Assembly (NCBI GenBank): GCA_964187785.1
Contig: OZ076409.1
Span: 65,226,001-65,290,000 of the forward strand
Length of the DNA: 64,000 nucleotides
DNA from: Amphiscolops sp. MND2022
Taxonomy: Eukaryota
Direction: 5' to 3'
Part shown: positions 9,376 through 59,003 of the stretch, piece after piece
Numbering within the stretch: position 1 is the stretch's first letter
Layout: every line of letters starts with the position of its first letter
Position numbers and translations under genes: made by a program
The notes under the pieces: model-generated
The model's database searches: none
The model's input: only the letters and a program-made list of their open reading frames with translations
Told to the model about the DNA's origin: nothing

Positions 9376-10720
9376 TTAAGCTTCCAGACTTTCCCCAGCG
9401 GGTTGACCAAGCTGGATCTTGTCATCTGAGTTGTAAATGGAAGGTAAGCTGTAATCTTTGCCTAGGGCTGGCATCTTATTTTGGGCAAAAAGCTCGTTTA
9501 TCTTGTCCAGATCCGTGGACGAACTCGGCCTATAAAGATGGTCCGGTTTCAATATCGAGCAGAGTCGTTCGTACGCACTTCCCTGAGCTTGAATAAACTC
9601 TTTGACAGCGAAAACCGGAATGAACATCACGGAAAACGCGGCTGTAGTCCAACCTATGGCTTCGGCCCAAGGGGGAATTGGCTCTCCGTTGTCAAGCAAC
9701 ATTGGCTTGTACAACACGGCGTTGAAGATGAAAATAGTGAACATGGCCAGAGGAGCGGTGAAGGACCAGGTGAACAGCCACCAGAGGGCTCCAGTCACCT
9801 TCTTATCCAGCATGGCTTCGATCTGCAGAATGAGCTTCTTGCCTCCGTAGACGTACACCAGAGCACTCAGTTCGATGAATGATATGACGAAAAGGCTGTA
9901 TGAACAAGAGTAGGTGTCGAACAGGTTAAGCCAGTGGATTCCCGCTTTGGTCACCATCGGGAGGCCGAGGAGGAACATGAGAACGGACACACCGACTGTC
10001 ACCCAAGCTCGTTGTCTCAAAAGAGAAGGAATTCGGTCAACCACAGCAGTGATCACGGTCTCCACCAAGGCCAGCTGACTTCCAAATCCCAAGTTCAACA
10101 GCATGAAGAAAAACAGGAATGCAAAGAGTGCTGATTGAGGCATTCTAGACACTGCGTCCGGGTACACAATGAAAGCGAGACCAGCTCCGCTTTCTACAAC
10201 ATCGTGTATTTCAAGTCCGGCTTCATGAGCCAGATGTCCGATCACGCAGAAAATGACTACACCGGCAATAATACTTGTGGAACAGTTGACAGTGGTGACA
10301 ATCATAGTCATTCGGAGAACATTGTTGTCGAAAGGAGAGTAACTAGCGAGCGTGATTAGAGATCCAAACGCCAGTCCGAGAGAGTAGAAGATTTGGTTGG
10401 CGGCCGTATTCCACACTTCGGGATCCTTCAGTTTAGCCCAGTCTGGAACCAGGTAGAAGTGGAGTCCATCAAAGGCGCCTTCTAGTGTCAATCCGCGCAC
10501 CAGGAGAATGGCGATCACCAAGTACGGAAAGATTGCGGTGAAGTAGGTAATTTTGCCGGAGCTCTTGACACCTTTGATAAGGAACAAGCACACCATGATC
10601 CACGCCACACAAAATGCGATCAACAGCTCGTATTGGAATCCACCGAAGTCTCCCAGCGATTCCGTCTTCTGCAAAACTTGGTCGTTCCAGTAGTTCTCAC
10701 TCATTTTGGCACAAGTATTC
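9376..10720 (-). CDS. SLC6 (neurotransmitter:sodium symporter) amino-acid transporter, last coding exon (TM4-TM12 and C-terminus)
   Basis: Motifs GVKSSGKITYFTAIFPY, WNTAANQIFYSLG, GLAFIVYPDAVSRMP and FFFMLLNLGFGSQ. The acceptor ttttgcatttcag at 10721 joins in frame with the upstream exon (GA|G = Glu). Confidence 0.95.
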
Positions 10721-10889
10721 CTGAAATGCAAAATGGGAGTAACAAATTGTAGAAACGCACCGGCACCGAAGTTTTCGGTGGTTTCCCAAATGACATAAAT
10801 GCAAATAACATAAAAATAAATTAATTCCCAGAAAACATAAAAGTACATTGAATTCCCATTTAACATAAAAATAAAATATTACTATAACG

Positions 10890-11441
10890 TAGTCAGATAT
10901 GTTCACATACCCCTAGTGCCCTAAATGCAGGAGCGAAGCGAAGCGGAGCGACGTGCCATATGGCCATGCCTCAATGTTGCTACTTGGCGAAGGGAGCGAA
11001 GCGACCGAGCCATACAACAAATATGCAAACCTTTTCAAATAAATCAAGTTCCAACATATTGGCTGTAACAATGATTCAGCGCAAGCGAGAAAGTAACGCA
11101 AGGTTGAATTTCAATTTTCAACCAATCAGAAGCGCTTAATTGTTTTATGTTTTCTGGGAATTAATTTATTTTTATGTTATTTGCATTTATGTCGGCGGCT
11201 ATTCACAAGTCCGAAAATAAATTTGGGTTGCACAAGTCCGAAAATGAATTTGGGTTGCAAAAGTCCGAAAATGAATTTGGGTTGCACAAGTCCGAAAAAA
11301 TGCTTCATATTTGTTGTATGGCTCGGTCGCTTCGCTCCCTTCGCCAAGTAGCAACATTGAGGCATGGCCATATGGCACGTCGCTCCGCTTCGCTTCGCTC
11401 CTGCATTTAGGGCACTAGGAGTATGTGAACATAGCTGACTA
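10890..11441. mobile_element. MITE/foldback-like element in the SLC6 intron with inverted arms of about 136 bp
   Basis: 10890-11025 is the near-perfect reverse complement of 11306-11441, with TA at both outer ends. Confidence 0.85.
11204..11298. repeat. 27-bp minisatellite, about 3.5 copies (CACAAGTCCGAAAATRAATTTGGGTTG)
   Basis: Directly visible tandem units. Related AGTCCGAAAA motifs occur in both orientations at about 16960-17320. Confidence 0.9.
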
Positions 11442-11847
11442 GAGGAAATTGAAAAACTCATTTTAAAATTCTTTGAACGGACTTCGTTCCGGTCCGCCCG
11501 CGTCAACCAATCAGATTGCAGAGAACTATACAGTGCTAAGTATTTCTTGTGCTGGATTTCTGAAATCTTATTGGACGGTAAAAATTTAATTTTATTCTTT
11601 CGGACTTGTGACCCGACACCTTTATGTCATTTGCATTTGTCATTTGGGACGTAATCAAGTTTTCGAGATGATATCTGAGATAGCACGCTTCAAAAATTTA
11701 TTTTAATCAAAAATTTATTATTTTAAAAAATCAAAGTTCTGCCCATTAAAATACCATTCCACGCTACAAAAGATGGCTACTGGTCAGTGCAGAAACAAAT
11801 CAAACTACTTAGTCGTATATAATTGGTTCAATTGAGGCTGAACTTAC

Positions 11848-12395
11848 TCTTGGGTATGATTGAGTTTGCTCTCATCTTTGCAATCCTTATCTTCCCATGG
11901 AAGCGGGTCGTTCAGTATCAAAGCCTTGATGGAGTAGAACAAGTAATGCAGAATCCAGGCCACGATGACATTGTAATATATAGAGCAGAAGAAAGAAATT
12001 GCAACCATTGCGTATCCAAGACCAACAAAAGCTTTTGATACGTGCCAAACGCCAAAAGGACCCTGACTTGAAAATTGGCCGATAGACAATTCCAGGAAAT
12101 ACAATGGCATCCCTGCGATAACCAGGAAAAGCAAGTATGGCACCAAGAAAGCTCCGCCGCCGTTTTGATAACATTTGTAGGGAAATCTCCATAAATTGCC
12201 CAATCCTATACTATAGGATATACAGGAAAATAAGAATTCCGTTTTGTTATTCCATTGATCTCGCCGAACTTCAGTCGATGATGCCATGGAAACAGTATCC
12301 GGTTGAGAACCTTCTTCGCTCAATGATTGAGTGGATTTCTTGCCGATTACGGCAATTTGCGTGAAGATTTCTTTTTCCTGTGGTCTGCAATCCAT
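11848..12395 (-). CDS. SLC6 transporter exon encoding the N-terminus and TM1-TM3; spliced CDS from this ATG is 630 aa
   Basis: RDQWNNKTEFLFSCISYSIGLGNLWRFPYKCYQNGGGAFLVPY signature. Donor GA|GTAAGT at 11847, intron 10721-11847. An upstream acceptor ttgcag at 12411 indicates a further 5' exon. Confidence 0.95.
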
Positions 12396-13889
12396 TTTGA
12401 TTTTTCCAATCTGCAACAAAATATTTTACAGGTAAAATATTTCAGTTAGCTGAAGAGGGAACAAGAATTAGCTCGAAAATTATAATTTCACTCCTTTGTT
12501 AATTTTAATAAACAAGGGGAGTTATAATGCACGTTTGTAATTTTAAGCTTCTTGCAATTGAAAAGTAGCAACTCTTTTCACGCCAAAATGTTCACAAAAT
12601 GACAACCGAGACATTGATTACGTAACTCGGAGAATTCCAGCTTAATATTACGTAAATTTCGTCATCATTCGCTCATACGTGGCTGTGTTTAGCCAATAAA
12701 AAGTGAACGCATAGACTGGTTTAAATATCGTGTCGAATAAAAAGCTTGCATTGAATTCGTCAAATTTGTCGAATGCAATTCGCAATCGATGTTACGTAAT
12801 TTTCTGTTCGTAGGAGACGGGAGACTCCAACGAATATCCCAGTGACAATATTTTCCTAGTACATTTCCTACATATTATTCGTCACTCCATTGGCACATAA
12901 CGCGGATAACCAGTACGATACTGGCAGTAATAGTATCTACTATCTACTAACTAAATGCGCTGTTTTCACTGTATAATGAAGCATGCCTATACTTCGCGCA
13001 ATGCACTAAATTACGTCTTATAAACGACCAGATATACATGTACAAATCCCATGGGGAAGCTTTAAACTTTAACGCACAAACGTAATCTCATTAATTCCAA
13101 AATTCGATAAAGGTAAATATCATTCATTCATTAACAATGATTTTGTGCGAATCAAGGTACAAAACGGTTGAAAACAGACCACTTGGGGAGGGGACTTAAG
13201 GAACATGGTCCCAAAACCGTCATTACAGGAACAAGCAAAAAGTTTTTGCATTCCTGCAATGACGTTTTGCACCTTCATTCGGTCGAAGTCATTGCTAATG
13301 AAGGATTTTTACCTTTTTCGATTTTGGAATTGCGATTACTTTTTGCGTTTAAAATATTGCCAAAAACTATCCAATTATAATAAATATGGTTTTGAGTCAA
13401 TTATAACCAGACTAGATCAAACAAAAAGTGAATTACGTCTCTGGACATTGACCTCCGTAAGAGTCACTTTTAATCTAAAAGTACTGCAGTATTTTAAAAC
13501 CAGAATAATCTTTCACAAAAAAGCAATAGGACAATAGGAAAAACTATAAGCAGAAATGACTAAACTATAATGCGGGAAGATATTTCGTTGGAGTAGACCA
13601 GATAATTTAGGGTCTTATCTGTTATACTTTTTTGTAAATTAGCCTTTTTCGTACTTTGTAATACTGTTATTAGGTGTCTCATAAAAACGGAACGCGTCTT
13701 AATTTTCAGCCGAACATCGAAATGCTTAAATAACATTAGAAACAGACGAAATTATATTTTCAGCCTGTTAACCACCACATTCGAAATGACAACTTCTGTT
13801 CGAACTGAATCACTTTTACACATTCAAATATCAGAACGAACCGGCAAGTTCTTTTGATTCAAGCGATATCTAAAAATTATCACAAGGTT

Positions 13890-15719
13890 TGAAACTTATT
13901 TTTTCAGTCTCGAATTTGATCTTGTTGTGGATCACAAGCCTCTAGTTCCAATTTTGAACTCATATGGGCTTCACCAGATTGTAAATCCCCGTTTACTTCG
14001 TCTGAGACTCAAGATTGAGTCATTCGTATTCACGACGAGTTGGTTAAAGGGCAAGGACAACGTGATTGCTGACGCTCTTTCAAGGTATCCAACTGGTAAA
14101 GCTGAGAATCTTCTGGACGGTGAAAAATGTAATCGACTGGCCGTCCATGTCGCAGATGACATTCATCTAAGGGACGAGAGTATTATCAAACAGGCTTCTC
14201 AGAATGATGAAGGTTATCAGAGGCTTGTTACGTACGTATTTGGAGGTTTTCCCAAGAAACTAAAAGACATGCCTCATTCGTTGTATCCATATTGGAAGTT
14301 TAAAGATCAATTAAGTCTTGAAGATGGTGTTCTTTTCAAAGGTTCACAGTTGCTAGTCCCCAAGAGTCTTCGATCTAAGTGTCTTTCTGAGCTTCATAAA
14401 TCTCATCAAGGTGTTGTTCGCACAAAACGTCGCGCACGTATGCTGTATTTCTGGCCAGGCATGAACAACGACATTTACAATATCGTTGGTAGTTGTGAGA
14501 AATGTTCACTGCATCAAAATAGTCAAGGAAAGGAGCCCCTTATCTTACAGGAAGCACCAAAAATCCCTTTCATGTCTGTATCTGTAGATATGTTTTCATG
14601 TGGTGGGAAAGAATGGTTGATATATACAGACAGGACATCGAACTGGTCATGTGTAAGTTGTTTGAACCACAACACTAGTACAGAAGCTGTGGTATTTTGC
14701 TTGCGCAATTGGTTCTCTGATGTTGGTGCACCAAAAGTGCTTATGTCCGACAATGGGCCTCAGTTCACTTCGCGTCGTTTCCGTGAGTTCTGCAAGAAAT
14801 GGAATATCGAGCAAAAATTTTCAACTCCCTATTATCCACAGTCCAATGGTTTGGCAGAAATCGCAGTCAAAAGCGTCAAAAAACTTTTGTTAAAATGCAG
14901 TAGTGTTAGAGGTTTTGATATGGATGAGTTCCACAAAGGTCTTCTTGAGCTCCGTAATACTCCAGGTGCTTCGGGACTCAGTCCCGCTCAAATATTGTAT
15001 GGTCGTCCTTTAAGTTCCTTCGTCCTCGCCAGTTCAAAACATTTTGCAAAAAACTGGCAAAATGAAATTTCTAACCTCGATAGTTTTAAAACTGTTCTAC
15101 ATGAGAAAATAAAAAGTCAATATGACAAGACTTCGAAAACACTTCATGATTTGAAAATTGGTTCCAGTGTTGATATTCAGTCTCCTTTTACTAAACTTTG
15201 GTCAAAAGCTGGTATAGTAGTGGACAAGGGTAAGTTCAGAGATTTCACAGTGAAATTGCCCAGTGGTAAAGTGATTAGGCGTAATAGGAGGTTCCTTCGT
15301 ATAAGTAGGCCTAGTATCCCTATTTCTATTCCGCTGCACTTGGGTGAAACTGGTTTTGATGAAACAGTTGAGACAGCTCAATTGAAGTCGCCTGCGGTAC
15401 CTGATCAGTTGACAGTTTCATCACAACCAAAGTTAAATCAACATATCAATTATGATCGTCCAAAAAGAAAACGAAGAAGAACGAGAAGAATGAATATCTG
15501 GGAAACCAATTGTAAAACTTATATTTCATGATTTGCCAAAAAAAAACCTCAAAGGGGGCATGATGTATATGTTCCACTCACGTGCTTTTGTATATATTGC
15601 TAGCCATAAGGTGTCATTCATATGTATGTTGTGCACGTGTGTTATTGCACATAAATTCAGTTGATTTACCATTCATAATTCACTCGCTCTTCCCTATATC
15701 TTTTCTCGAGAACATATCA
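13890..15719 (+). mobile_element. 5'-truncated Gypsy (Mag-like) element: RNase H end, integrase, PPT and 3' LTR
   Basis: The open frame below, purine tract AAAGGGGGCA at 15551-15560, and a candidate LTR TGATG...TATCA at 15561-15719. Confidence 0.8.
13927..15531 (+). CDS. pol: Gypsy pol fragment (RNase H C-terminus, HHCC zinc finger, DDE integrase); no native start codon
   Basis: DHKPL, ADALSR, HKSHQG...FWPGM...CEKC, SVDMF, SDNGPQF, PQSNGLAE, RRNRRFL. Confidence 0.9.
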   Translation: MDHKPLVPILNSYGLHQIVNPRLLRLRLKIESFVFTTSWLKGKDNVIADALSRYPTGKAENLLDGEKCNRLAVHVADDIHLRDESIIKQASQNDEGYQRLVTYVFGGFPKKLKDMPHSLYPYWKFKDQLSLEDGVLFKGSQLLVPKSLRSKCLSELHKSHQGVVRTKRRARMLYFWPGMNNDIYNIVGSCEKCSLHQNSQGKEPLILQEAPKIPFMSVSVDMFSCGGKEWLIYTDRTSNWSCVSCLNHNTSTEAVVFCLRNWFSDVGAPKVLMSDNGPQFTSRRFREFCKKWNIEQKFSTPYYPQSNGLAEIAVKSVKKLLLKCSSVRGFDMDEFHKGLLELRNTPGASGLSPAQILYGRPLSSFVLASSKHFAKNWQNEISNLDSFKTVLHEKIKSQYDKTSKTLHDLKIGSSVDIQSPFTKLWSKAGIVVDKGKFRDFTVKLPSGKVIRRNRRFLRISRPSIPISIPLHLGETGFDETVETAQLKSPAVPDQLTVSSQPKLNQHINYDRPKRKRRRTRRMNIWETNCKTYIS

Positions 15720-22058: not shown

Positions 22059-22224
22059 CACGGACCACGTGTCTTATTTAACCAACCCCCTCATTTTTGT
22101 TCTTGGAGGAATATCGTTACAGCTGTTTTGACACTTCCAGCAGAAAAAATGACCCTAAGTTTTCGATATTTCTGTCCAAAAGAGCAAAAATTCACGCTCG
22201 GAACATGGGTGAACATGCTAAAAT

Positions 22225-25200
22225 GGGAGGTGGAAACTTCGTCCTAGGAAATTTCGTCGTATGAGCAAATGCAGAAATTTCGTCGTCGGAAATTTCGTCG
22301 AATTGATTAGAATTAACAGCGTTAACAAAACGACATCATTTGATTCATTCAATTATTTAATTATTAAAATGTGATCTTAAGAACAAGTTACCAGTTGACA
22401 CCAAAATTGAGTCAAAAGGTTAATTGCATTCAATCAAACCAAGACCCTTATTGAGCAATGGTATAGTTTCAGTCCTACCGGTGGAACTTACCGGGCTTTA
22501 CAGTACAATTTAGGCTTGTTCCAGGGGTGATTTTTTTATCGGAAAATTATTTTAAAAACTCCTGGTAACTTTTGCTTTAAATGTCGAAACAACTGCGTGT
22601 TGGGGGATAAAAAACAAGTTATATCTGGGGGGCCCAAAACTATTTGCTCTCAAAACCATAACTAAAAGTAGTCAATGATAGCAATAATTGCACAATTATC
22701 GATAATTATTATTAGTATTATAGGACTCTCTATGGCTAAAAAACCCCGAATAATAGGACTCATTATGTCAATTCCAGACTCTCTATGGCCAACCTCAAAA
22801 ATTCAAAGTTCTCAAAAAGCTCTTCAAAAGTTTTTCAGGACAATCAAATGGTTGGAAAACAATCTCTGTTGTGATAAGATTACAATTGCATCTAAATCCA
22901 AGTGTCTTATTTCAGATTAGAATGGTTTTCAGGTCCGAAAACATTTTCAGCTTTTATTTTGGGATTATACGACTCTCTATGGTCATCCAGCGAGAGTATC
23001 AGATGCGAATCGTAATGTGTGACGTAATTCAAGAGTCGTCTCATTTCTCATTGGCCAATCATTTTACGAACGATCAGAAGTTGTTCTCAGTCTAGACACG
23101 CACTGTAGCAGCGGTACTGGCGTTTTACAACGCTTGTACTGAAATAACTATTAGACGTTCATTGTCAATCTAGTTACTATTAGACACTCTTTGTTATGAA
23201 ATTGGTTACACATAGACACGTGGTGGTTTAAGAGATTTCGGCGGCTCAAATTTCAATTCAACAAAGTAACTGAAAACTCTGATTTAGGCAATCGAAAACT
23301 ATCCAGTAATTACCAGCAGTAACAGGGTCACTCATTATCTATGTACAGACTAAAATTTTACAGTAGCGTAAACGTTAACCAGCTTACAAAAAACTTTTTT
23401 GAAAACAAAAGCAGTGTCTTCCTCTTTTAAATTCAATTCGTTTACGATGTCTTTTACGTTGCCTTTCGACAACTTTGCTCTCTTTGAAGCCACCATTCGA
23501 CAAGCTCTTTTATACTGTGATTCCAACGGGAAAGACTTTCTGTTACTGAATTTCAAAAGTTTTTTGGCAATTTCATCATATAATTCCTCATTTTTCAATC
23601 TTGTTTTAATGTTTGTATCTTCAATTTTGACAACTTTTGCATTTCGGGGGGTTGAAATTCTTCGTCGTTATCATTACTGTTGCTTTCAGAATCCTGATCT
23701 GTTTCGGAGTCCCGATTTTTATTCTTTTTTGAAACTTTTTTCCGTTTTGCATCTTTTTGACCAGTTTTCACTTGATCTGTTTTGGACAAACTTTTTGACG
23801 AAGAAGCAATTAATTCAGTTTGAGGATCATCCCCATCTTCAAGATTTTCGGCGGCATCCTCAGAAGCAGTACTGGGAACTGTCAATTGTAATTCTGATTG
23901 TTTTTCGGCGCGTTTTTTTCGAAATTGAACACGGATATCATTTGTCGCATCGAACAAATTTTGTAACTCATTATCTGTTGGTGGAACCACATAGTGTTTC
24001 TCACGCGTCTTCTCAGAGTGTGCCGAATTAGCCTCGAATATTTTGCGGGAATTTGTCGGAATTTTTTGCTTGTTTTTCTCATAAAAAGTCTCCCAAACTT
24101 TTCTGCATGAATTCGGGTTGAATTTTTCGTCTTTTTTGCCAAATAAATTTTTCATTAGACGGCTGATTGTGGCCGATTGCGACGTGAATTCATTATCATC
24201 ATGGCCGGGAAAAATTGTTGTCGGTTTGATACCGTATTTTTCTTCGTATTAACTGTGAATTTCTTGCAAAACTTTCTTTTCAAAAGCTGTTATATAGGCG
24301 TAGTTGGTGAATAAACTTCCGGTTTTATGGTCATTCGAGCGAATAAAGGTCCCTGGTTCATATGCGTCAAGTTGCTCAGTCGTAAAAGACAACAAAATAC
24401 CCACACGCCAATTGGCCCGTGAGTGAATTTGGAATAACATCAGCGACAATTTTTCGAATACGGTCATTGTATGCCATCGAGAGTCTAATTCTAATTTATT
24501 TTCAATGAAAGTTTCCACCTTGTCTTGGATCTCACAAAGTGATTCCATGGTAGGAATTTGTGCAAATCGTTCCTGTTTTCGCTTTGACTGTTCTTTAAGG
24601 CAATCCTTAGAAGTCTCACTGAGCCACAAATTGATCGAGTCGTCAAAACTGACCTTGTTTATACGATAAGATTTTTGATGCCCGGCATTCATCCACTTTA
24701 TGAACTGTTTGATGTCAAAACAAATTTTTCGTGCTGAGCTGAAAGTATATTGGCGATCTTTTTTCAAATCATCAAGACATTTGCCAACTAGTTCAGGTCT
24801 TTTCATGCTGTGTGTGCCTCTAAAAAACTTTGAAATTGCGTCGAATTGGAAATTTGCAAGTGGCCGTTTCATTTTTTCGATACAATAATCGCGATATTTG
24901 TTCAGCATTTCGCCGCCCTTCTCGGATAGGACACCTTTTTCTTTCACGTATTTGATGATTTCGGCTGGAAATACATTGCAATTGTCTCGGGTGATGTTTT
25001 TGATTGAATGTTGAGGGAATTGACTCAAATGTCGCTGACGATGAGTGAAACGGTATACACATTCTGCGCATTCATACACCGGACTTTTGGCATTTTTAGT
25101 AGAAAACACACTCAAAATGAAACGCAGGGGATACCGGTCCATTTGTGGCTCTTGACTAAATGCTGACGAAGAAATTTCACTTTTTTTGGACAGATTGGAC

Positions 25201-26216
25201 ACTGAATTTCACCAGATTGTTTTGGCTTGATTCCGCGTTTTACTGTTTTTTGTTCCGCCGGTAGCGTTGAGGGCCCTTGTTCGGTCTCCGATTCTTCGGG
25301 GGGTATCTCCTCACGACTTTGGGTGGCTTCGAGGGGGGCATCGTCTGTTGTTTTAGGGGAAAACAGGAGGAAATCATTTTCGATGATATCGTCGAGCACT
25401 GGCATGGTGGACTCAGACCCAGCTAAATCGTCTATAATTGCCTGTGTAAGAGGCCCTGGTGCTGGTAAACCGAAACTGAGGTCTAAATTTAAGTTTTCTG
25501 GACTAGATTCTCGCAATTCTGATTGTTCTAATTCTTTTTCCGGTGAATTTTTCAGGATTCGACCAGATCTAAGTATTCTAGCCATCACGTGTCTATATGT
25601 AACCAAAAGGTGAACAAAGAGTGATTATAGGAATTTTAAAATTTCTGAATAAAAATTGAAAACGAACGCAATGATTTGTATTGAATGAAGTTATGAAATG
25701 AACGTTACGTCATGCGGCAGCTTTGTATAAATTACAGTTGTCTGATTACGTCACACAGGTAGTGTTATGGCGGGGAATGTTGATGACGTCACTAGCCAGA
25801 GAGTGTCTAATTACGTCATCGTTATTTACCTGTTCCGCTTATGCGACGAGGCTGCGCAAGTGTATGCGGCAATCATTTCCGGAATGCTTTTGAATGAATA
25901 CCTTTCCGTAATGCTGGAAGTTTCCTATATATGACTTTTTGTAGTACCACTCTATGGCTAACCTGAATTCAGGCCTTGGACACTCTATGGCCACAAAATT
26001 GGCCGTTGCTTAAACCATAGAGCCTCCCACAATTATTAGGATAATTAACAAGACTCGATAAATATTAAGATTCAATGATAAAACGATTTCAAAAAGATTT
26101 AAGAAAATGCGACGGTTTATAGAACGTAATCACCGACGACGAAACTTCTGACGACGACATTTCTGGCGACGAAATTTCTGACGACGAAATTTCCGACGAC
26201 GAAAATTCTGGTAATC
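22225..26216. mobile_element. 3992-bp DNA element with inverted terminal arrays of a 15-bp repeat and an 8-bp TSD, carrying a tyrosine-recombinase gene
   Basis: GAAATTTCGTCGT-type repeats at 22232-22300 and their reverse complement (about 5 copies) at 26134-26210. GCTAAAAT flanks both ends (22217-22224, 26217-26224). Confidence 0.75.
23350..25585 (-). pseudogene. Zinc-finger plus tyrosine recombinase (Crypton-like YR) gene, about 745 codons, with two frameshifts and one in-frame stop
   Basis: Joining ORFs 25112-25606, 24249-25202, 23595-24155 and 23350-23598 gives CPIC..RQHL..SH and CAEC...RHL fingers, then YR-like motifs in canonical order: ANWRVG (R), DHKTG (K), NSCRK (HxxR-like), AHSEKTREKHY (H...Y). 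Lesions at about 25135, 24249-24251 (TAA, same frame continues) and about 23650. Confidence 0.75.
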
Positions 26217-26838
26217 GCTAAAATCATTAAAAGGCCCCTATTTCAATGCGAATTTTCTGCGCGATAAAATAGGGGCCTTTTAAATGATTTTAACTGCAGT
26301 CACTGTAAAAGATAGGAATATGTCGACATCATGTACTTTACTGGACACCAATTTCATCGCAAACGATGTCGACATTATGGTATTTGAATCTTGTGTCTTA
26401 TTCCCCCCTGCTGCGGGGGGATAAGACACATTGTCCGATTTCACTTTTATTCAAGCTAACTAGGAAAATGTTCGAAATATTCCTTCAAAAAATCTCGATG
26501 GGGTTAAAAAAAGCGTTGATCTTTTCTTGGAAAATTACTGCAAACACGGAACCGGTGAGGAAAGTTTCGATGATCGATATCAAAAGATGAATTGCGGAAG
26601 GATGCAAGGTGCTCCGTTTTTTAGGTAAATTTCAAACACAAAAGTTCCAGATCAGAAGTGTTCTGGACTTTGATATGAATCACAATGGTAACTTTTTGTT
26701 TGATCGAAAAAAAACCAATTACGTTCATTCGTATTTCTGTGAACTTCGACAATTTTCGAGTTTTTTCCTTGAACTTTTTCTTACCGGTAATGTCACACAT
26801 GTAGCTCAAAAATGTTGTTAGTTTACAAATTACAAACC

Positions 26839-31736: not shown

Positions 31737-31905
31737 TGTGAAGTTCCCTTTGGACCTTTTTAGCAGTTTGGAGCAGTCGTCCTCTGGAGTTTTGTCATCT
31801 ACAATAACCCGGTGAGCTTGTTCCAAAAAAGCACGCTTCACGTGCGAAGGGTTTTTTTATTTTGCAATTTTAAACCATAGTTCAATTCAAGTGACAAAAT
31901 TCATT

Positions 31906-34900
31906 ATGTCAAAAAAACTGCTGCGAAGCAGAAACTTACTAAAAGAGGAGCTCGAAGAGGCACAAGAAAGGCTCTTGTCTTATGTCAGGCGGGTTGGACG
32001 ATATGTTCAAGTTGAAAAACAATTGAAAACATGTCAAGAGATACTTTCACGGGCTGTTGAGAAAAACCTTCAACTAATTGAAAGCGCTGAGCAAGAATCC
32101 GAAAAGGAACTATATCGGCAATGGATTAGCAAAACTACTGACGAAAATGATGCATTTTGTGCTCAAGCTAGAGAATACTTGAAACAGTCGAAATCAACCA
32201 GTGATACGCTCAGCAGCATAGTCAGAAAGTCGACAAATTCCACAGCATCGTCGGAAAAACTCCGACTTGAAGCTAGCTTACGTCTACAAGAACTAGAACG
32301 GCGAGCCGAAGAGAACATTCGTCTTGCTAAAGCGAAAGCTGACTTAGAGTTGATGCAACTAGAAGAAGAAAACCGACGGCAAGTAGCAGATGCCAAAATT
32401 CTTGAGGAGCTACTGGAATTTGACGAAACTATTTCTAAGAAGAAATCGAGTAGTACGTCTTACAAATCATCTACTCAGCGAACTGAAAATTGGGTAACTG
32501 AAGTTGCAGAAACATGTTTTCAACAACCAAGGGTTGATACCGAAATCAATCCAATCGTCACCGAAGTCGTTCATGTGAACGCTAACTCAGTCCCGGAAGA
32601 TGTTCATAGAGTAAGATCAGTTCTAGTTAGTCAACCAGTCTCCGCTTCTACGCAGTCTCAAGGTACTTTGCCTGATTTGGAACGGATCCATCTACACAAG
32701 GAGGCCCAATTCGCCTCTCAAGCCAAGTCATTTCACGTACAAAAACCCATCTCACTATTTGACGAAGCCCTCTCCGACGTGTCTCTTACAAAGAACAATT
32801 TCAGGAAATTTACAGAAAACGAGCCTTTCGAAAACAACCAAAAGTCAACTCCATCGCATCAGCATACATCACTTCGCGATGGGAATGGCCACGACAGTCC
32901 TCAGACAAATGTGAGCGTGAGGCCTGTCATACACGAAAGTCTTTGGCCGCAGACTAACATACCAGAAAAGGCAGAAATCTTCAATCAGCAATCGACCAAA
33001 AAACCGCCAACAGCTGTTCCAGAACCTCCCGCAACACGTATTACAGTTGACGATTTTGCAGCAAGCAGTCATGTTCATAAAGTTTTGCCCTCAAATGAGC
33101 AACCGAAGCATTTAAACGTGTGCACCGCTCCCTGTTATAGCAATTTTCAGCCGATATCTCAACACAACGTTGATCAACCGTCAAAAACAACTTGTTTTTC
33201 GAACCTGTTTCAAGCCCAACAGCCAATCCTATACAACACTTCTCATCAACAATCAGCCGCTTCTCATCCATCAGTTTCCTACCGACAAGAATCTGTTCAG
33301 CCGATAGCAACTACTTACCAACCGTTAAGTTCTTATCAACCAGCGCTTGATATACCGACTTTCAACTCAAAACTTTCAGTTCCTTACCGCCAAGAAGCTG
33401 ATTGTCTCTTCCGAACCGCCCATCAGACACCAGTTGCTCACCGTCAAGTAAGTGAAGAACATCGCCCAAACACCCATGCTAACAGTCACAACTCATGTGG
33501 TAACCCTACTACCGTCTATCAACGCCCAGCTGTTTCTTACCGACAAGGAACCGACAACCCGCAAACAGTACCATCAACTTTCAACTTAGCCGAACTTCTC
33601 GCTTTTTACAAGCGGGATCCATTGCCCGAATGGAAGTTGAGTTGCTTCGATGGAAACCCTCTGGATTGGTTCGAATGGTTTGGCTAATTCAAAAGTGCCA
33701 TCGATTCTTCTCACCTCTCGAATGATGTCAAATTAACTTACCTGAAAACGTTAGTTTCGGGGAAAGCTAAAGCCGCTATTCAACAGTTCGCCTACTGTGG
33801 AACAATGTACGAAGAAGCACTTCGAACCTTGCAAAGGAAGTTTGGACAACCACAGGCAGTTGTGTCAGCATACTTGGAGAAACTTTCAAAGTACCCGCCC
33901 GTGAAAATACACTCATCGGAAAGCATCATAGACTTCGCTACAACGATGGGAAGTCTTGTTGGTGTTTTCAAATCTCTTGGATACGAAGCCGATTTGAACA
34001 GCACCAGCCTTTTGAATCAAGCTGTAGCAAAACTTCCACCAAACCTCAAAGAAGCATGGTCTTTTTTCACTGTCAAACAGTCTCTAGAGCGACCGTCACT
34101 TCAAGAGTTCAACACATGGCTTCAGCAGAAAGCCGAAGCTCATGATCGCATGCAGACTGTTCACTCTCAGCCGTCGTCGTCGCCAATCTACAGCAAGCAG
34201 CCGAGCCAATTACCCCAGCAGCCGAAGATCAAATTCACCAAGTCTTTCTCGTCATCCACAAAAGAGAAACACGAAAACAGCGACTATCAACAACACCTCT
34301 GTCCTATGTGTTCAGGAGCTCATTTGCTGTATCGCTGCAGCAAATTCCGCAACCAAACTCCAAACGAACGCATCAGGTTTGCAGTTGAGAAAAAATTGTG
34401 TTTCTCATGCCTACAAGGAACACATTCATTCCGCCAATGCCCTACGAAATACTCGTGTCCAAAACAAGGATGCAAAAGTTCTCACAGTGTTTTGCTTCAT
34501 GGGGCAGAACGCGTGTTCTCAAAGTCAACATCATCAGGACCGCAGCTACAAAACACAGAAGAATCTTCATCGAAGAACTCTACAATCGCAGCCGCAAAAA
34601 CCTGTAAAGGTCTTCTGCAGATAGCAGAAGTTACCATCTCGTATAAGGGTAGAAATCGAAGAGTCCTTGCGATGCTGGATTCTGGAAGTACCCACACTTG
34701 GATCGCCGAAAACATTGCCGAAGAACTCGGTCTGCCCGGAGAAGAGCAGACCATTCGACTTTTTGGCATCAACAACGAAGAAGACTTACCAACAAGACGC
34801 GTAGTTTTCAACGTCACCGCAGCACATCCTAGTGATATGCAACCTTCCTCACATGAAGTCTACGCTTACACAAAAGCCAACCTTAGCATTGGTAAGGATT

Positions 34901-37900
34901 CATATAATGTCACAACCTTGAAGAAGACATATCAACAGCTGAAACCGTTGCCAAACGTCGTCGTCAACTACCAAGACGTTGTCCTACTTCTTGGTCACGA
35001 TGCCTACGAGTGCATCCAACCACTTGAATACAGAGCCGGTCAGCCAAACCAACCTATCGCAGTGCGCACAGCCCTTGGCTGGGTCCTGAGTGGTCCTGTA
35101 TCCAATCAAGCCTTGAAAGAATGTTCCACCTTTAAAGCCGTCACCACTGAAGATCAACACCTAGCCAACCAGGTTCATCATTGGTGGGAACTAGAGTCGT
35201 ATGGTTCCAGCAAAACTGGTGACTCACAATCATTGGAAGATCAATATGCCTTGAAGATTTTGGAAGCTACAACATATCACGATGGAAGCCGCTACGTAGT
35301 GGGAAAGTTGTGGTCTTCTGAAGCGTCCTCTTTGCCGAACAATTATTACTACGCCTTAGCCCAGCTTCGATCTTTGGAGAAACGCTTTGACCGAGACCCA
35401 GCTCTGAAAGAAAGATATGCCAACACAATCAAAGAAGACATACAGAAAGAATACGTGATAGAAGTACCATCTGCAGAAATTTTTGAAACAACGTCTCCTC
35501 GTCAATGGTATTTACCTCACCATCCAGTACAACACCCGCTCAAACCGGACAAAGTTCGCCGAGTACTAAATGGAGCCGCAAAATTCCGCGATGTTTCGCT
35601 AAACTCAGCCCTGCTTCGTGGACCTGTTCTTCTGCAAAATTTGCTACAAATTTTGTTAAGGTTTCGACAACACCAATTTGCCGTCTCAGCTGACATAGAA
35701 GGAATGTTCCTTCAAGTAGGAGTACCAGAAAAGGACCAACCGTCTTTACGATTCCTCTGGAGAAAAACTCCCTCAGAAGTAATCAAAGTCTACCAGTACA
35801 CACGTCACATCTTTGGTGCAAAGGACAGCCCAACTTGCGCCAACTACGCCTTGAACAGAACTGGCCTGGACAACGCAGCCAAGTTTCCTGAAGCAGCAAT
35901 CGCTGTGAAACAAAATTTTTACATGGATGACTATTTAGATTCGCGTCCAACTTTGGAAGGAATTGAGTCACTGGCGAAAGATCTCATCCAACTCCTTTCA
36001 ATTGGGGGCTTCAAGCTAACCAAGTGGATCAGCAATGCCCCACTGCTAGCAGACCGCCTCAACACTTTCGCCGATTCATATCACAACCGACAAACACAAT
36101 TGATTCCTTCCAGCTCGATAGAAGAAGATATAGACGAAACCCGAAGAAACACGATGTCATCCCCACGACAGAGAACCAGCAAATCCACACAACTTGAATC
36201 CTCTAAAGTATCTTCAGCCAGTCCGAGATACCACACTACAAGACATAGTACGTTAGAAGTTAAAGCAATGGAAAACCTAACAGCAGTGGAAAAGATGCCA
36301 TTGGGAGACGCAGTCAACAATTTACCGTCAGAAGCCAAACATGCCACGTGGCCCGAGTCAACAAAAAAAAGCAATGCGAAGATTGTCCAAGTTCAGCCTC
36401 AATAGTATCACCCGCAACTCCAGCAAACCCATCCGTGCTAGGTTTGCGTTGGAATACCGATCAAGACACCCTGATTGTTAGTCGTGGAACTACTCCAGAC
36501 TTGATAGGAAAGACAATTACCCAGCGACTTGTTCTTAGTACCGTATCTTCAGTTTTTGATCCCATCGGACTAATTGCCCCGTTCACCATACGAGCCCGTC
36601 TACTCTTGAAACAACTCTGGAAGAGCACCGGTCAACAATGGGACGAAGAAATACCCGAAGATTCACAATCAGAGTTCCTGGAATGGTGTTCTGAACTTGA
36701 GAACATTTCAAAAATTGCAGTACCCAGAGCCTTTTTCAGTGAGCCGAACGGACAATACGAGCTTCATGTTTTTGGCGATGCGTCAGCTGAAGCTTTCGCC
36801 GCAGTCGCCTACCTTCGACAGCCAGCTAGTAAGGGAGATGAAACAAGCCAGACAGCTTTCATAATTGGAAAAGCCAGAGTGGCCCCAATGAAACTGCTAA
36901 CTATTCCCAAACTAGAACTTCAAGCTGCTTTGCTCGCATCGCGTTTGAAACGTTTCGTCGAAGATTCACTAACGATACCTATCAACAAAGTCAACCTGTG
37001 GACCGACAGTACCACCGTTTGCCAATGGATTCGAAGTTCTGCTTTAAAACACCCAATTTTCGTCGCAAATCGCCTTTCAGAGATTCTAGAGCTTACATCA
37101 GTAGATCAATGGAAGTTTGTTCCTGGTAGCCTCAACCCTGCCGACTGTTCTACTAGGGGATTCCCTGCAAACAGACTCAATAACTGTTCGTGGATTCATG
37201 GTCCATCCTTTTTGAAAGAAGAGTTCATACCAGACTTTGAAGTTTCAACGACTTCCACAGTCACAAATCCCAACTCTCAGTTCCAAGCAGAAGAAATTTC
37301 GTCTTCAGAGAAAACATGTTTGAAAGAATCAGAAGAAGAAGAAAAGGAAGAAGAAGAAAAAGAGAAAGGACTTTCAGCACCTACGATGCCCAGAGAAATA
37401 GTTTCTGCCGCGCTTCAAGCTAATTATAAGCCACAAGTGGTTCCTTGGAATCGTTTTAGCAACTACAATAAACTAAAACGAGTTTTTGCATACATTTTGC
37501 GCCTACTGCAAAGTCATTATATGTTCCGACAAACTACGAAAATTTTACACCCTGAAGAATACTTAGCCGCCGAGAAACGAATTTTCATTCTTTCTCAGAA
37601 GGAATCTTTCGCCGAGGAACTCAAGCACCTACGGAAGAATCAAAGTCTCTCGAGATGTAGCCGTATCATCAAGTTCAATCCCTTCCTAGGAACCGACAAC
37701 CTTCTGCGATCAACTGGTCGCACATCACGAATGAAAGAAATACCTTTCGAAGTAAAACATCCAATCATTTTGGACAGCCGACACCCTGCGGTATGCCTAC
37801 TTCTGCAACACATACATCAGATTCATCTTCATCAAGGGGTGGAATACTTCCGCTCCGTAATTCAACAAGATTATGCAGTACTCCGCCTTAGGTCAGCCCT

Positions 37901-38939
37901 TAGGAAACTGGAATCCGAATGTTTGTTCTGCCGCCGTAGAAGAGCAAAATGTCTCCAACCCCTGATGGCCGATCTACCGACTGAACGCCTGGCATACAAG
38001 AAGCCCGCATTTACCAACACAGGTCTCGACTGTTTTGGACCTCTACATGTGACCGTCCGACGAACAACTGAAAAAAGGTGGATAATAATATTTACCTGCC
38101 TAACAACCAGAGCAATCCACCTAGAAGTTCTCCATAGTCTGAACACCAGCTCATGCATGATGGCAATTGACAGATTCGTGGCCCGTCGAGGTCGACTTGA
38201 TACTTTCTGGTCAGACAATGGAACCAATTTTGTCAGTGCCAGCAAAGAAGTCAACACCATAGAAACGCCAGCCCTTCAAGAAAAATGTGCCCAACGCCGT
38301 ATAAAGTGGAAATTCAATACTCCATCAGCACCCAATCAAGGAGGAGCTTGGGAAAGCCTAATCAAGTCATGCAAGAGGATACTTTTCACCGTTCTCGGAT
38401 CAAGCAAAGTGAAAGAAGAAGTTCTCATCACCTCAATTTGCCTAGTAGAGCAAGCAATGAATTCCAGACCTCTCGTTCCTGCAAGCTCTGATCCAACAGA
38501 TCTGAATGCCTTGTCTCCCAATAATTTCCTCAATTGTGGAGAAGTACTTCAGCCCGCAGTTTTTGCCCGAGATCCACATCACGCACACCATCGCCGAGTT
38601 TACCAGCAAGCTCAACATTATGCAGACGCCATATGGACACGTTTGCTCAAAGAATACGTGCCAACTCTAAATCTTCGACACAAATGGACAGAGACTACTG
38701 AGCCCTTAGCAAAAGGAGAACTAGTGTGGCTTGTGGAGAGTCACTCACCACGCGGAAACTACCATTTGGCCCGAGTGTGCGAGCTTCACTATGACAGCAA
38801 GGGAGTTGCAAGATCTGCTAAAATTATTACCAAGGAGGCAGTTTTGATGCGCCCTGTCAATAAATTGGTCAGATTGTGGAACGTCAGCAGCGCTACCCCC
38901 GAGGATGTTGAAAGTGACTTCCAAATTCCGCATGAATGA
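31906..38939 (+). pseudogene. gag-pol: BEL/Pao gag-pol polyprotein (Gag with three Cys/His knuckles, protease, RT, RNase H, integrase) with one stop and one frameshift
   Basis: FDGNPLDW, CPMC/CFSC/CPKQGC knuckles, LDSGS, YMDD, HVFGDAS, TIPKLEL, WSDNGTNF, GGAWE. In-frame TAA at 33685-33687 and a -1 shift at the A-run near 36363-36370. Confidence 0.93.
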
Positions 38940-45176: not shown

Positions 45177-47122
45177 TGTCGCAGGCTGCCGCCTGTGACG
45201 GCACTATGATTACGACAACAAGCAACGACCAAGAAGTCATACCCGGAACGCTGCCGACCTTTTAAGAATAAAACTGCTAAAACTTTGGAAACTGTTTACA
45301 TTATGTATTTTTGTTTGTATTTATTTTATTTGGTTTTTTATATTGGATGTTCAAACTAGTCTGTTAATGTTACGATTTGGGATTAGCCAAATCGGTTCGT
45401 TGATGCAGTAGCTGAATTAAATTGCAAAATTGTATTGATGCTGTAGCAAACAATAAGAGAGCAAGTTAATCGCGAGAAGGAAACGTGTTCAAGTGCGGAA
45501 ACGTCCCTTCTCGGCGATATAGCTCACCACAGTTGTGCTAGCCAATCACGTGCTGTAATTCTTGCTGTGCTATTATTGTATTTGTTAATTGGCCGGTTAG
45601 GGCCGTCTGACGAAATTCCGCTCTCGCTGCTCACTACTTTGGTCAAACGGCCGGTTCCGGCCACAAAGCAATAGTGAAGAGGGATTAACTTAGTACATCG
45701 TTGCTTTAATAATAATAATACAATTGTCCTTTCATGTAGTTTAAATGTTCATTGTTGATAATGTAAAGCATTGTTTAGTATTTGGCCGAGTAAGGCCCAT
45801 TGAACTAATATATATGGTTTCAATTGGTACTCTGGTCAAATGGTCAATTATGGCCACTTCATGCATATTTGTGTTTTATTGTTCAGTTAACCGAGTATTA
45901 ACCCAGAACCAGCATTAATTCATCCCTGAAACATGTAAAGGTGCTTACGATACTATATTATCTGTGTGATCCTAGTATACGTAAAAATAGACGGACAAGG
46001 CTATATTCCTTCACTCCACTATTGTGCTGTATGTACTCACGGAATTAAGCCCATTTCGGCTTCAGCATGAAATGTATTTTTATGAATGGGAATTCGTACA
46101 GTAGTCTTTGTGTACGATTATACATTCCATTCTCAGTGTAGTATATGATAAATCTTGTGTCGACACGTGCCTCCACTTCACTTTACGTGAGTTATGCAAA
46201 CAAAGGTATTTGTTGACACTTTGATGTACATGCCTTAATCGGCAACTCGTTTGAAGCTATCTTTTGACTATATGACCCATAAATGCCATTCCTTAGATGT
46301 CCCCGAAGGTATGTGAATATCAGGGTTTTCATCATGGAACCAATGGTCATATGATGCTATCAACCTAACTAGTTATGTATGGAATGTGACTGTCATTCCC
46401 TGAAGGGTATAAATACTGTCATCCCGTTGGGGAAATCATTAAATCATTTCGTTCTACTCTAGTTAAGTTTAATCCACAAACGGCACCGCTGTTATTTCCG
46501 TGTTGATTAATTTATTATTGATTCGGAACTGTTTCAATGCCAACCACTAGAAAACAAAAGAAAGCTAGAAAGTCTAGAGGACTTGAGATGTTATCAGATA
46601 TTGAAAATCTGGATATTATGTTAGGTGAAAACCACTTTGATAGAGGTGAGAGAAATGAAAGTGTGAATAGTAATCAAGCCGGTAGACCAGAAAGCCTATT
46701 TGGAGACGAACTTGAAAATGAGAATGAGTTCCCGAACTCAAGAAATAATGGACCAAGTCCAAATACTGAATTAGGCCATAATTCAATCAGAGAATGTTCA
46801 AGCGTTGAGATCAATAGATTGTCGAGTGAGTTAAATTCACGTATATCTCGAGAGATGGATGAAATGATGAACAGTGTCAGTGTTCAGATTCAAAGAGCCA
46901 TAAATGAGGCAATTAGCAGCCAAATTTTGCCTCAAATCCAAAATGTAGTTATGGCCGGATCGGGACAATTGACCAAAGGGGGATGGAACGTTCCGGCTGA
47001 GAGACCGGAAGGACATTCTGAAGTACTGCAAAACTTAGAACCTAAAAATAATTCTAAGAACAAACAGGCCAATGACCGTCCCAAAGACGGAGGCACAAGC
47101 ACAAACTCTCGTGCTTACGACA
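45177..47122 (+). repeat. 5' LTR (1946 bp)
   Basis: Direct repeat of 59698-61643; two substitutions found by eye. Confidence 0.95.
46408..46415 (+). promoter_or_regulatory. Candidate TATA box of the LTR promoter
   Basis: TATAAATA about 125 bp upstream of the gag ATG. Confidence 0.5.
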
Positions 47123-48240
47123 TGGTGACAGGAGAAAACGAATCTCCAATCGAAGTTCCTGAGTTTCTCACGGGACGAATCTCATCCAGAAACCATCTCG
47201 ACAGATCCTATGAGGACATTAACCTTGACACGACGATCCCAGCGCAAGAGAGAAATGCCCCGGCTACGCCAACTGACCCTATCACGCGACTAGCAGATGT
47301 CTTGACAACGATGCAGAATAGGCCGACAGCCCAACAACTCACTATACGCCCAGTCAATTCAAACACAATGACCTTTGATGGCAAGAGTGAAAAATTCGAG
47401 CTGTTCGAGGACCTGTTCCACACGATGATCAAGATGCAACCGGAAATGACGGAGCAGATGAAAATAAATCACTTCCACTCATTGCTGAGGAAGAATGCTC
47501 TCCAAACCTTCCGGAACATCAGCTCGAGCAATAGACAGACTTTAGAGGACGTATTGGTAATATTCAGACGAAAATACGTCAAACCAGAATCACAAGCAAC
47601 TGCCAAACATAAATGGCACCGTCTAGTTTTCGATCCTAACACGATGAAACTGCCAGATTTCCTTGAAGAATTAAATCAAGGGGCAGAAAAAGCATTCGGA
47701 GATCATGCACAGAAAATGATTGACAGTTTGCTTTACGCAAAACTGCCACCAAAACTGAAGCGGTCCGTAAACATGGCCAGACTCGAAAACGGCTCTTATG
47801 ACGAAATAGTTGCTCATTTAGAGAGAGAATTAGAACTAAATGCTCTTGAGGAATCAGACGACCTACCAATGGCCACAATGACCTCCTCGACAACAAAATC
47901 CAAAACTCCCCTAACTACTGGGCAAATGTCGGACATCACTTGCAACTACTGCAAGGAAAAGGGCCATATGGTCAAAGACTGCGAAAAATTGAAGAAGAAA
48001 AAGGAAAAAGATGCCCAGCAAGGCAAGCAGACTCAGAAAAAGACATATCCGGAGTGTGGCACTTGTGGCAAAAAGAACCACCCGGAAGAAAGATGCTGGC
48101 AAGGTGCTGGTGCGCATCTCAAACCCAAACGTACCAGACAAGATGACGCTAATGACGGTAACCCCAATTCAAAGGCGCAAAAACCACAAAACAAACCAAC
48201 ATCTTCCAACTCACAGACCTCATCTTCCAAGGATGAGTAA
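46537..48240 (+). CDS. gag: Gag (567 aa) with two CCHC knuckles; starts inside the 5' LTR
   Basis: TFDGKSEKFELFEDLF capsid-like motif, CNYCKEKGHMVKDC and CGTCGKKNHPEERC. Confidence 0.92.
   Translation: MPTTRKQKKARKSRGLEMLSDIENLDIMLGENHFDRGERNESVNSNQAGRPESLFGDELENENEFPNSRNNGPSPNTELGHNSIRECSSVEINRLSSELNSRISREMDEMMNSVSVQIQRAINEAISSQILPQIQNVVMAGSGQLTKGGWNVPAERPEGHSEVLQNLEPKNNSKNKQANDRPKDGGTSTNSRAYDMVTGENESPIEVPEFLTGRISSRNHLDRSYEDINLDTTIPAQERNAPATPTDPITRLADVLTTMQNRPTAQQLTIRPVNSNTMTFDGKSEKFELFEDLFHTMIKMQPEMTEQMKINHFHSLLRKNALQTFRNISSSNRQTLEDVLVIFRRKYVKPESQATAKHKWHRLVFDPNTMKLPDFLEELNQGAEKAFGDHAQKMIDSLLYAKLPPKLKRSVNMARLENGSYDEIVAHLERELELNALEESDDLPMATMTSSTTKSKTPLTTGQMSDITCNYCKEKGHMVKDCEKLKKKKEKDAQQGKQTQKKTYPECGTCGKKNHPEERCWQGAGAHLKPKRTRQDDANDGNPNSKAQKPQNKPTSSNSQTSSSKDE
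47123..47134 (+). promoter_or_regulatory. Primer-binding site, tRNA-Leu-like, within gag coding sequence
   Basis: TGGTGACAGGAG immediately after the LTR; 11/12 match to TGGTGTCAGGAG, the complement of a metazoan tRNA-Leu 3' end as I recall it. Confidence 0.6.
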
Positions 48241-48246
48241 AAAAAC
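48240..48246 (+). promoter_or_regulatory. -1 ribosomal frameshift heptamer A AAA AAC at the gag-pol junction
   Basis: Correctly phased in the gag frame; the -1 frame is open from here into the protease ORF. Confidence 0.7.
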
Positions 48247-57907: not shown

Positions 57908-59003
57908 TCTACCGCATTAGAAATCTTCCGGAAGTACTTGAGAATTTGAACAAAATGTGCTATCACGCGCTTATTAGTGGAAACAGGAAGCTTATTATGA
58001 ACGAAGTCTAGCCCTGATCAAGCTAAACTAGTTCAATATATGAAAATCAGACCAACCTGTGTTCGAAGACATGTTCCCTCAGTGTTGTTGTTCCAACGGA
58101 AGTTGTTTGTGCTGAGAAGAAGACTTTGTAGAGCTGAATTGACTACGACAGGGACAAAAGGAAATCTGGGATACTCCGGAGAGAAGAGCTGGAGGAAGCA
58201 GTTGTGTAGTTGTGGACACACAAGGATGAATGACGGTTAGATAAATGCAAATAGCAGAAGCAGATATGAATGATCAGAAATGGAATTGGCTTAGAACTTT
58301 AATGTAAAGGAATTGAAGAGTTGGAGTTCGTGGCTGAAGATTATTACCAGACTAATATTATGGGATTATTTACATATTTATTCTGTACATGGAGTCTGCC
58401 AGCGAAATGTACAAAGATTACTTCATTATTTACAACTTATGGAATTATTGGCCGGTTACGGCCGTTTACCCTATTTCGGTTTACCATCTCGTTCCATTTT
58501 GTTTGTTGTCCTAATCGGGACTTCCGTTATTTTAGTTACTCAAATTGTTATTTCCGCCATTTTGAATTATTTTAATTTATCATTTTCGCCATTTTATTAC
58601 TTAATTTTTCATTTTATCGGAGCTTAACTCTGATTGGCTGAAGCCATGTTGAAAGAATTTAGCGGCGTGCGCCGTTAATAGCCTTCAAGCGACCCGTTAA
58701 TTACCCACTTGAGATGGAGAGAATTGACGTTAACAACTCAAGCGTCGTTCACACCTCTTCAGGCGATGGCGTTGATGACGAGTAAACATCGGTATATCAA
58801 AGGCGGCCAACTAATTATGGAATTCCATTCAGGAATGTTTATGTCGGATCAGGACAATTTACCGAAGATTCAACCGCCGAAAACGAATTGCCGGGAAAAA
58901 GCCCGAGTCGGCTAAATTCTCAAATTTGTTGGGTTCATTCTATCTCAAACTTTGACTCTGACTAGTTGCCTCCTCAAGCTTCAAGATAGCTAAAAAACTC
59001 ATA

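Follow-up and report, generated by a model that had tools for sequence, protein, structure and literature searches.

A predicted tyrosine recombinase element of microsatellites lies within a common MITE in Amphiscolops sp. MND2022

CryptonV elements have terminal inverted repeats (TIRs). CryptonV is described as a tyrosine recombinase DNA transposon with some microsatellite-specific families (Kapitonov and Jurka 2012, Repbase Reports 12:2034, as cited in PMC8869645), and endogenous nimaviruses, with genomes of hundreds of kb, are described as bearing telomere-repeat-specific tyrosine recombinases with a (TAACC)n target (PMC10871703). Here we describe a region at 22225-26216 of a 64,000-bp stretch of contig OZ076409.1 from Amphiscolops sp. 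MND2022 (“the window,” whose first letter is position 1) that consists of two nested elements and not of one hybrid: a predicted recombinase element lies inside a common miniature inverted-repeat transposable element (MITE). We consider it probable that the inner element is a 3.3-kb, single-gene, microsatellite-dwelling unit inside an earlier MITE with its own target site duplication (TSD), and that it moves by a predicted recombinase, excision as a circle and crossover into TAA repeats. No named CryptonV sequence turned up in the searches; by description, the inner family resembles CryptonV as a recombinase-only DNA transposon found in microsatellites and would appear to work in the same way.

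A sequence-only reading of the region had noted inverted arrays of a 15-bp unit, an exact 8-bp duplication (GCTAAAAT) and one reconstructable gene, all of which are present, and had proposed either a recombinase gene carried as accessory or cargo by a DDE element or a Crypton-like unit nested in a MITE, each of which it thought an unusual hybrid. The second alternative agrees with the genome: the inner 3.3 kb (“the core”) lies mostly in (TAA)n tracts without the arrays, and hundreds of array copies have no core. The two elements occur independently, and the nest as such is ordinary. In a DNA search of the 1.07-Gb genome assembly (G000) with 22200-26250, the best 40 of 1807 candidates included at least 25 matches of at least 3 kb, most spanning only about 22702-26047, and at least nine loci in which both outer parts are joined directly and the core is absent. 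Not noted in the sequence-only reading, the core is bounded by ends of its own and flanked by a separate duplicated target (ATTATTA, at 22705-22711 and 26032-26038).

The MITE is about 670 bp in size, its outer parts occupying 22225-22711 and 26032-26216. On the plus strand, the left part (22225-22711) starts with the terminus GGGAGG, carries one of the inverted arrays (22232-22300) and ends in the target heptamer; the right part (26039-26216) carries the other array (26124-26211) and ends in TGGTAATC. The GCTAAAAT duplication flanks it at 22217-22224 and 26217-26224 (plus strand), with a third copy elsewhere in the window (38817); directly past the right TSD, at 26219-26292, is a short palindromic element with arms of 24 bp and a loop of 9 bp. 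An exact pattern search of the whole genome returned 505 left and 527 right MITE ends, with none for the reversed controls. Both ends were found in 26 of the 28 MITE loci that we retrieved, 25 of them 601-1192 bp long and one 2429 bp. An 8-bp duplication is exact in 12 of the 26 core-free copies and present at no more than one mismatch in 18; for a 9-bp duplication the figures are three and four. Thus, 22 of the 26 have an 8- or 9-bp TSD at that tolerance, and the duplication around the window copy, which the sequence-only reading had allowed might be coincidental, is not a chance match. Given that the closest core-free MITEs are 85-89% identical to the window MITE and the core is about 99% identical to an intact copy elsewhere in the genome (L002), the core likely arrived after the MITE.

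By its sequence features the outer MITE is likely a non-autonomous Mutator-like element (MULE). Aedes MULEs are described as having 8-9-bp TSDs and 9-15-bp subterminal repeats (PMC5225508), and the MITE resembles Muta1-like MULEs (type 2 Foldback) and their derivatives in its 8-9-bp TSD, short terminal motif and subterminal tandem units in the 9-15-bp range, but differs from them in that the first seven bases of its two ends are unequal (GGGAGGC vs. GATTACC). In this genome, the MULE-domain loci (30 of the 150 listed) often have inverted arrays of 15-16-bp units, unequal ends starting with G, and 8-9-bp TSDs. The ends of two such loci, L179 and L192 (the latter with MULE and FLYWCH domains, an array unit AGGAAATTACGCCCA and the ends GGTTCTAGGAAATTACG and GGTGTCCGGAAATTACG), resemble the MITE ends without being identical to them. 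The exact autonomous partner was not found among 30 of the 150 listed MULE loci and 30 of the 42 Merlin loci; the Merlin loci had only short internal matches to MITE copies (L114, L051), and their ends did not match. Longer MITE copies with a DDE gene, which the sequence-only reading had envisaged, did not emerge either, as the end-to-end candidates (L125, L130, L135, L137, L138) held other insertions or host DNA. A further locus, L136, resembled a symmetric MITE, but the inversion extends into the flanks, hence it is an inverted duplication. Separately, another MITE copy (L125:1063-1955) contains broken Tc1/mariner-like frames, with motifs recognized by eye, a second nesting in this MITE, and long-frame clusters at L137:7246-9901 and L138:449-5053 have, by their motifs, a Polinton-like appearance.

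The inner element (22715-26031, minus strand, 3317 bp) belongs to a subfamily designated F761, whose target is (TAA)n. In gene sense the core starts with TGTGGGAGGCTCTATGG and ends with CATAGAGAGT(A/C)CTATAATAC. Twenty-two of 30 F761 5' ends follow pure (TAA)n, three follow the MITE site and five lie at other AT-rich sites, with ATAAT preceding the element in all 30; for the 3' ends, the counts are 19 of 26 adjoining pure (TAA)n and 25 of 26 followed by a TAATAA start (the 3'-end pattern omitted ends with G at the last place, the window copy's included). The MITE site was also found empty, as the sequence-only reading had suggested looking for, and then holds TAATAAT once; when filled, it holds the heptamer on both sides plus an extra TAA at the 3' end. 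In the window, the 5' junction (26032-26038, minus strand) consists of the second heptamer copy, which reads TAATAAT in gene sense, and the 3' junction (22705-22714, minus strand) is TAA followed by TAATAAT, 10 bp, with the heptamer common to the empty MITE site. The junction length is 10 bp in the window and in L062 (7+10-7), and 10 bp again in L004 (7+7-4, the neighboring satellite unit being taken as the empty site). Three of the eight insertions outside microsatellites are in the MITE site, for which the rough chance, computed from the local density of TAATAAT, is 1e-4 to 1e-7 for 5000 to 530 MITE copies; at that chance, the MITE site is a secondary hot spot. The MITE's TAATAAT follows GAGTC with about the spacing seen at the element's own 3' end, which would explain the three MITE insertions.

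These data bear directly on the idea that the MITE and the recombinase core moved as one composite, as cargo of a MULE transposase. A Mariner-Crypton fusion, MarCry-1_FO, is on record with four copies more than 97% identical, TIRs, TSDs and its own transposase (PMC3212892), and the window likewise has a recombinase gene between DDE-type ends, with intact MITE ends and an exact TSD around the core; two further cores occupy the same MITE site, one of them (L061) 98.6% identical to the window's, and a nest once made could still be mobilized later. In contrast to MarCry-1_FO, neither a repeated composite nor a transposase was found here. Just three of 30 cores are in MITEs, all in different variants, so that the recombinase does not keep company with the array ends as the cargo alternative of the sequence-only reading would have it. 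The MITE sides of the three nested cores are 81-88% alike over 110 nt and the cores 92-99%: L061 and the window share only 81.5% on the MITE side despite their cores, the left MITE part is missing from L061 over the 14 kb examined, and L062, a core of the young subfamily (92.4%), occupies another MITE variant, where no TSD was seen. No common outer TSD was found for the three. They appear from these comparisons to be independent insertions, and we regard joint movement as quite improbable.

The nested core is part of a large and recently active family. Fifteen of 24 cores, at different loci, are identical over 3328 bp, which indicates very recent movement. Protein searches gave at least nine subfamilies (their numbers are lower bounds), all 3.25-3.38 kb long with one gene and fixed ends. 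The targets in gene sense are (TAA)n for F761 and F759, (TTA)n for F788, F757 and F669, (CAT)n for F726, F766 and F715, and (ATG)n for F735 (one copy), and the orientation within the target repeat is fixed in each subfamily. Near full-length matches to the eight subfamilies other than F761 have a tract of at least four units on one side in 41 of 42 cases and on both sides in 33 of 42, eight of the 42 rows being the reference copies themselves; 262 kb of other DNA held five AAT and no ATC tracts as background. In 10 of 23 cases, an F761 copy directly adjoins another family member within one tract, in the orientation that the subfamily predicts. Clusters of several subfamilies extend over tens of kb of ATC tracts (G000:C8:53.06-53.12 Mb, C1:21.83-21.85 Mb and C2:40.04-40.07 Mb), and an unrelated Joint Genome Institute (JGI) contig carries a relative of F726 between two (CAT)n tracts. 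Three loci (L065, L066, L069) hold internally deleted F761 copies in tandem with full copies, with (TAA)13-15 between them; the deletion in L065 and L066 joins codon 285 to codon 567. Metagenomes yielded one confirmed relative among 120 candidates.

The gene of the window copy runs on the minus strand from 25585 to 23350 as a broken gene in four frame pieces, for a predicted tyrosine recombinase of about 746 aa (intact copies encode 746-748 aa). Compared with intact L002, its lesions number exactly three, as the sequence-only reading had counted: one base is lost near 25129, four bases are lost near 23652, and a TAA stop interrupts the frame at 24249-24251. The copy also carries 36 substitutions over about 3317 bp, and one of these replaces with W a Cys that does not vary in the 14 rows of our alignment A4. 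The recent coding function suggested in that reading is borne out for the family, with its 15 identical copies and a ratio of nonsynonymous to synonymous substitution rates (dN/dS) of 0.13 between the two F761 groups (codons 120-560); the window copy itself is broken. The predicted protein has an acidic N-terminus, two C2H2 zinc fingers, a SAM-like helical domain, the catalytic domain, an acidic linker and a helical C-terminus, in that order; an AlphaFold model of residues 120-560 has a mean pLDDT of 85.6 and a pTM of 0.58. Both fingers noticed earlier are present, as are the motifs R, K, xxR, H and Y, with the catalytic motifs at 23991-24407 (minus strand): R at 24405-24407, NDHKTG from 24335, NPNSCRK from 24119, SAH from 24026 and KHY from 23999. 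No DDE frame was found within 22225-26216, as already reported.

Motifs and profile links point to a tyrosine recombinase as the product of the inner element. The residues R, K, xxR, H and Y occur in order and in the same register as in XerD, and across 24 rows R394 is conserved in 24, K421, R495 and H523 in 23 each and Y532 in 22. Single-protein searches of Pfam, PHROGs and PDB gave nothing useful; relatives matched PF00589 below the cut-off (P0044 at E 4e-5, another at E 3e-4). A search of 1.84 billion representatives gave 150 matches at E<=0.001, and among the 20 looked up were 18 unnamed entries, one “hypothetical protein” and one nimavirus tyrosine recombinase, BDT62627.1 (E 1.7e-4). An hhalign comparison with eight nimaviral-type proteins reached 97.9% and E 5e-13 over 402 columns covering the fingers, the SAM-like domain and the catalytic domain, and controls from the same assembly were weak (DUF3504 recombinase, E 0.06-0.12; DIRS-like recombinase, E 0.66). 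At equal database size, the family profile scored nimaviral proteins at 49-64 bits vs. 12 for XerD, and the nimaviral profile scored the best family members at 25-29 bits vs. 17 for XerA, with most of the 42 family rows below that; the two are reciprocal best scores among the profiles tested. In the Atlas, the nearest entries were unnamed eukaryotic clusters (0.96-0.98), with Mollusca and Chordata the commonest taxa, and the named neighbors were tyrosine recombinases or integrases (0.93-0.94).

By these comparisons, the closest named relatives appear to be nimavirus tyrosine recombinases and not CryptonA or DIRS. The family shares with CryptonA, F, I and S (PMC3212892) a single recombinase gene, short direct end repeats, a proposed circle and R-H-R-Y-type residues, but it has NxxR for HxxR and strict choices of microsatellite and strand. 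CryptonA membership was rejected: DUF3504 was found in none of 35 relatives and none of 14 alignment members (control L132, E 9e-24), and there is no profile match to the DUF3504 recombinase of this genome. For GCR1_C, the domain of CryptonF, Pfam gave no match in P0001 and P0002. The control locus L132 (682-3183, on G000:C3 near 2.083 Mb) is a 1055-aa open frame of head-to-tail, near-identical, CryptonA-type repeats of about 331 aa that keep the R, HSLR and GH motifs; it is likely an in-frame tandem array of about 993 bp. A contig with a DIRS-like recombinase (L131, G000:C1368) is GC-rich where the chromosomes are AT-rich; it may come from a symbiont or a contaminant.

One could also imagine an RNA route, in which the inner element would be DIRS- or Ngaro-like and non-autonomous, with a borrowed reverse transcriptase, its own recombinase integrating circular cDNA. 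DIRS-type elements do integrate by tyrosine recombinase (PMC13465315), and F761 has an internal 42-bp inverted copy of its gene start region (23185-23226, plus strand; partner arm 25582-25623), 120-170 bp past the stop codon. This repeat is in both F761 groups and in none of seven other subfamilies, however, and the element has one gene, no reverse transcriptase, no repeats like long terminal repeats or split direct repeats, and no similarity to the DIRS-like recombinase, which also sets it apart from DIRS and Ngaro as a group. An AG just before the ATG in six subfamilies, which looks like a retained splice acceptor, would likewise argue against an RNA stage, and we judge that route very improbable. 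The repeat is no true element end or inversion switch, as the ends are about 450 bp farther out; it could instead let the 5' and 3' parts of the RNA pair, or mark an antisense RNA start. At the starts of L060-L090, a pyrimidine-rich stretch in the six subfamilies leads up to AG and then AC, which stand 5-8 bases ahead of the ATG, and this looks, by its sequence, like a splice or trans-splice acceptor. In F669 (L091:2533-4539), a SET-free frame of 669 codons stops before the C-terminal domain with a GTAAG-like donor nearby, and F669 is probably an intron-bearing subfamily; a distant relative among JGI proteins (P0041, 895 aa) has an N-terminal SET domain above the Pfam cut-off.

The likeness to the recombinases of shrimp nimaviruses (BDT62627.1) extends to C2H2, SAM-like and catalytic domains in the same order, an HKT motif and insertion into simple repeats; they differ in an identity of only about 19-23% and in being virus-borne and directed to (TAACC)n, whereas here the gene is essentially the whole 3.3-kb element and the repeats are AAT or ATC. 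From that domain order, the reciprocal best scores among the profiles tested and the shared taste for simple repeats, it might be argued that a large integrating DNA virus stands behind the inner elements, which would be its reduced remnants or its satellites and no ordinary transposons. We find this very unlikely: every subfamily has the same compact size, one gene and fixed ends, none of 36 candidate stretches from IMG/VR was confirmed as a relative, and in a quick tree (48 rows, unrooted, with long branches, from which no direction of transfer is drawn) the nimaviral proteins fall outside on a long branch. A phage tblastn gave only three chance matches (E 5-8). The same tree places the AAT-targeting subfamilies together (support 87 with the long F669 branch, 100 without it) and the ATC-targeting subfamilies in two groups. 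The tree in PMC10871703 (2023) contains CryA, F, I, S, Kangaroo and Tec, with CryptonV not listed, and finds nimaviral integrases unrelated to the eukaryotic elements included; a literature search, with subscription journals and Repbase outside it, found no paper linking this family type to nimaviral integrases.

A DDE transposase might also cut and paste the inner element in trans, with the recombinase a resolver of intermediates or a passenger. Microsatellite-targeting DDE elements are known (PMC4486113; Ginger2-like, PMC10871703), and short TIRs do occur in some subfamilies: F766 and F788 have imperfect ones of about 21-22 bp, so that the rule that Cryptons lack TIRs, invoked by the sequence-only reading, does not hold for this family. 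F761, however, has almost none, the filled MITE site has three extra bases past the heptamer and L004 shares only four, as expected of a constant circle junction but not of a constant TSD, and the gene and its catalytic residues are kept in all subfamilies, in line with the low dN/dS. We therefore hold a DDE transposase in trans to be extremely unlikely.

In the circle model that we favor, a MULE transposase encoded elsewhere would first have inserted the MITE and made the GCTAAAAT duplication. The recombinase would then bind CATAGAG-type motifs and the ends and join the ends into a circle whose junction would hold 10 bp, (TAA)3T. The predicted binding arms, whose function we infer from sequence, are three CATAGAGAG-type motifs at the 3' end of the element (22724-22988, minus strand) and, at the 5' end, two CATAGAG motifs in gene sense with one inverted copy near the terminus (25946-26022, minus strand); the CATAGAGAG-type motif also stands near the ends of F759, F788, F757 and F766. 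A staggered crossover between the junction and a TAAT-containing target would integrate the circle, and with the crossover falling within the shared repeat, the flanking repeat would be common homology and not a DDE-type duplication. As the tract beside each copy would remain a target, family members would stack. Copy number may rise by gap repair or by replication timing, and the window copy would have decayed after insertion. Circle excision and integration have been proposed for Cryptons (PMC3212892, PMC13465315), and we prefer the model because of the fixed junction length, the shared homology without a fixed TSD, the fixed orientation and the stacking.

Several observations weigh against this interpretation. 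The circle, the role of CATAGAG and the target-reading domain are what we infer, and no circle junction was seen. With a 10-bp spacer, L002 would share only one junction base on both sides, and its empty site was not found. The tyrosine recombinase identity is predicted from motifs and profiles: the alignment of the profile's motifs (HxxR, GH, Y) with XerD is weak (E 0.57), none of 24 rows has the His of HxxR (N 17, T 5, D 1, K 1), a Pfam search of P0001 and P0002 gave no PF00589 match, a broader alignment (A5) matched nothing in PDB at E<=1, and the Atlas matches have just 109-118 of 256 features in common. Among 60 DDE loci, taken with 1.5-kb flanks, none proved to be an autonomous element ending exactly as the MITE does. 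Lastly, the identical copies could in part be an assembly effect, as several are on unplaced contigs.

Elsewhere in the window are a sodium:neurotransmitter symporter (SLC6) gene in two long frames (9379-12425, minus strand), an integrase fragment (13858-15528), a BEL/Pao-type element with DUF1759, protease and reverse transcriptase (31816-38936), and a Gypsy-type element with reverse transcriptase, RNase H and integrase (46522-53447), a second copy of whose first frame lies at 61043-61693. The SLC6 and long terminal repeat retrotransposon frames would fit an animal genome. An open frame of 686 codons (55859-57916, minus strand) has no Pfam match at E<=1e-4, and a similar frame starts beside L020.

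The inner family most likely adds a new member to a kind that is known but has hardly been described; microsatellite-targeting recombinase transposons have so far been known almost only from a database note. A more far-reaching possibility, which we put forward tentatively and with real doubt, is that it represents an animal family of zinc-finger tyrosine recombinase transposons apart from all Crypton groups, including CryptonV, repeatedly “re-aimed” from one microsatellite and strand to another, and either source or sister of the repeat-specific integrases with which nimaviruses get into crustacean genomes. If that is true, nine recently spread subfamilies would be a natural series for finding the residues or arms that read the trinucleotide repeat and the strand. 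The family is also a candidate origin for the nimaviral telomere-repeat integrases. In one genome there are at least nine subfamilies whose genes are intact or nearly so and whose ends are defined, with sites seen both empty and filled and with differing choices of repeat and strand, so that both the circle model of integration in eukaryotes and the determinants of repeat targeting become directly testable.

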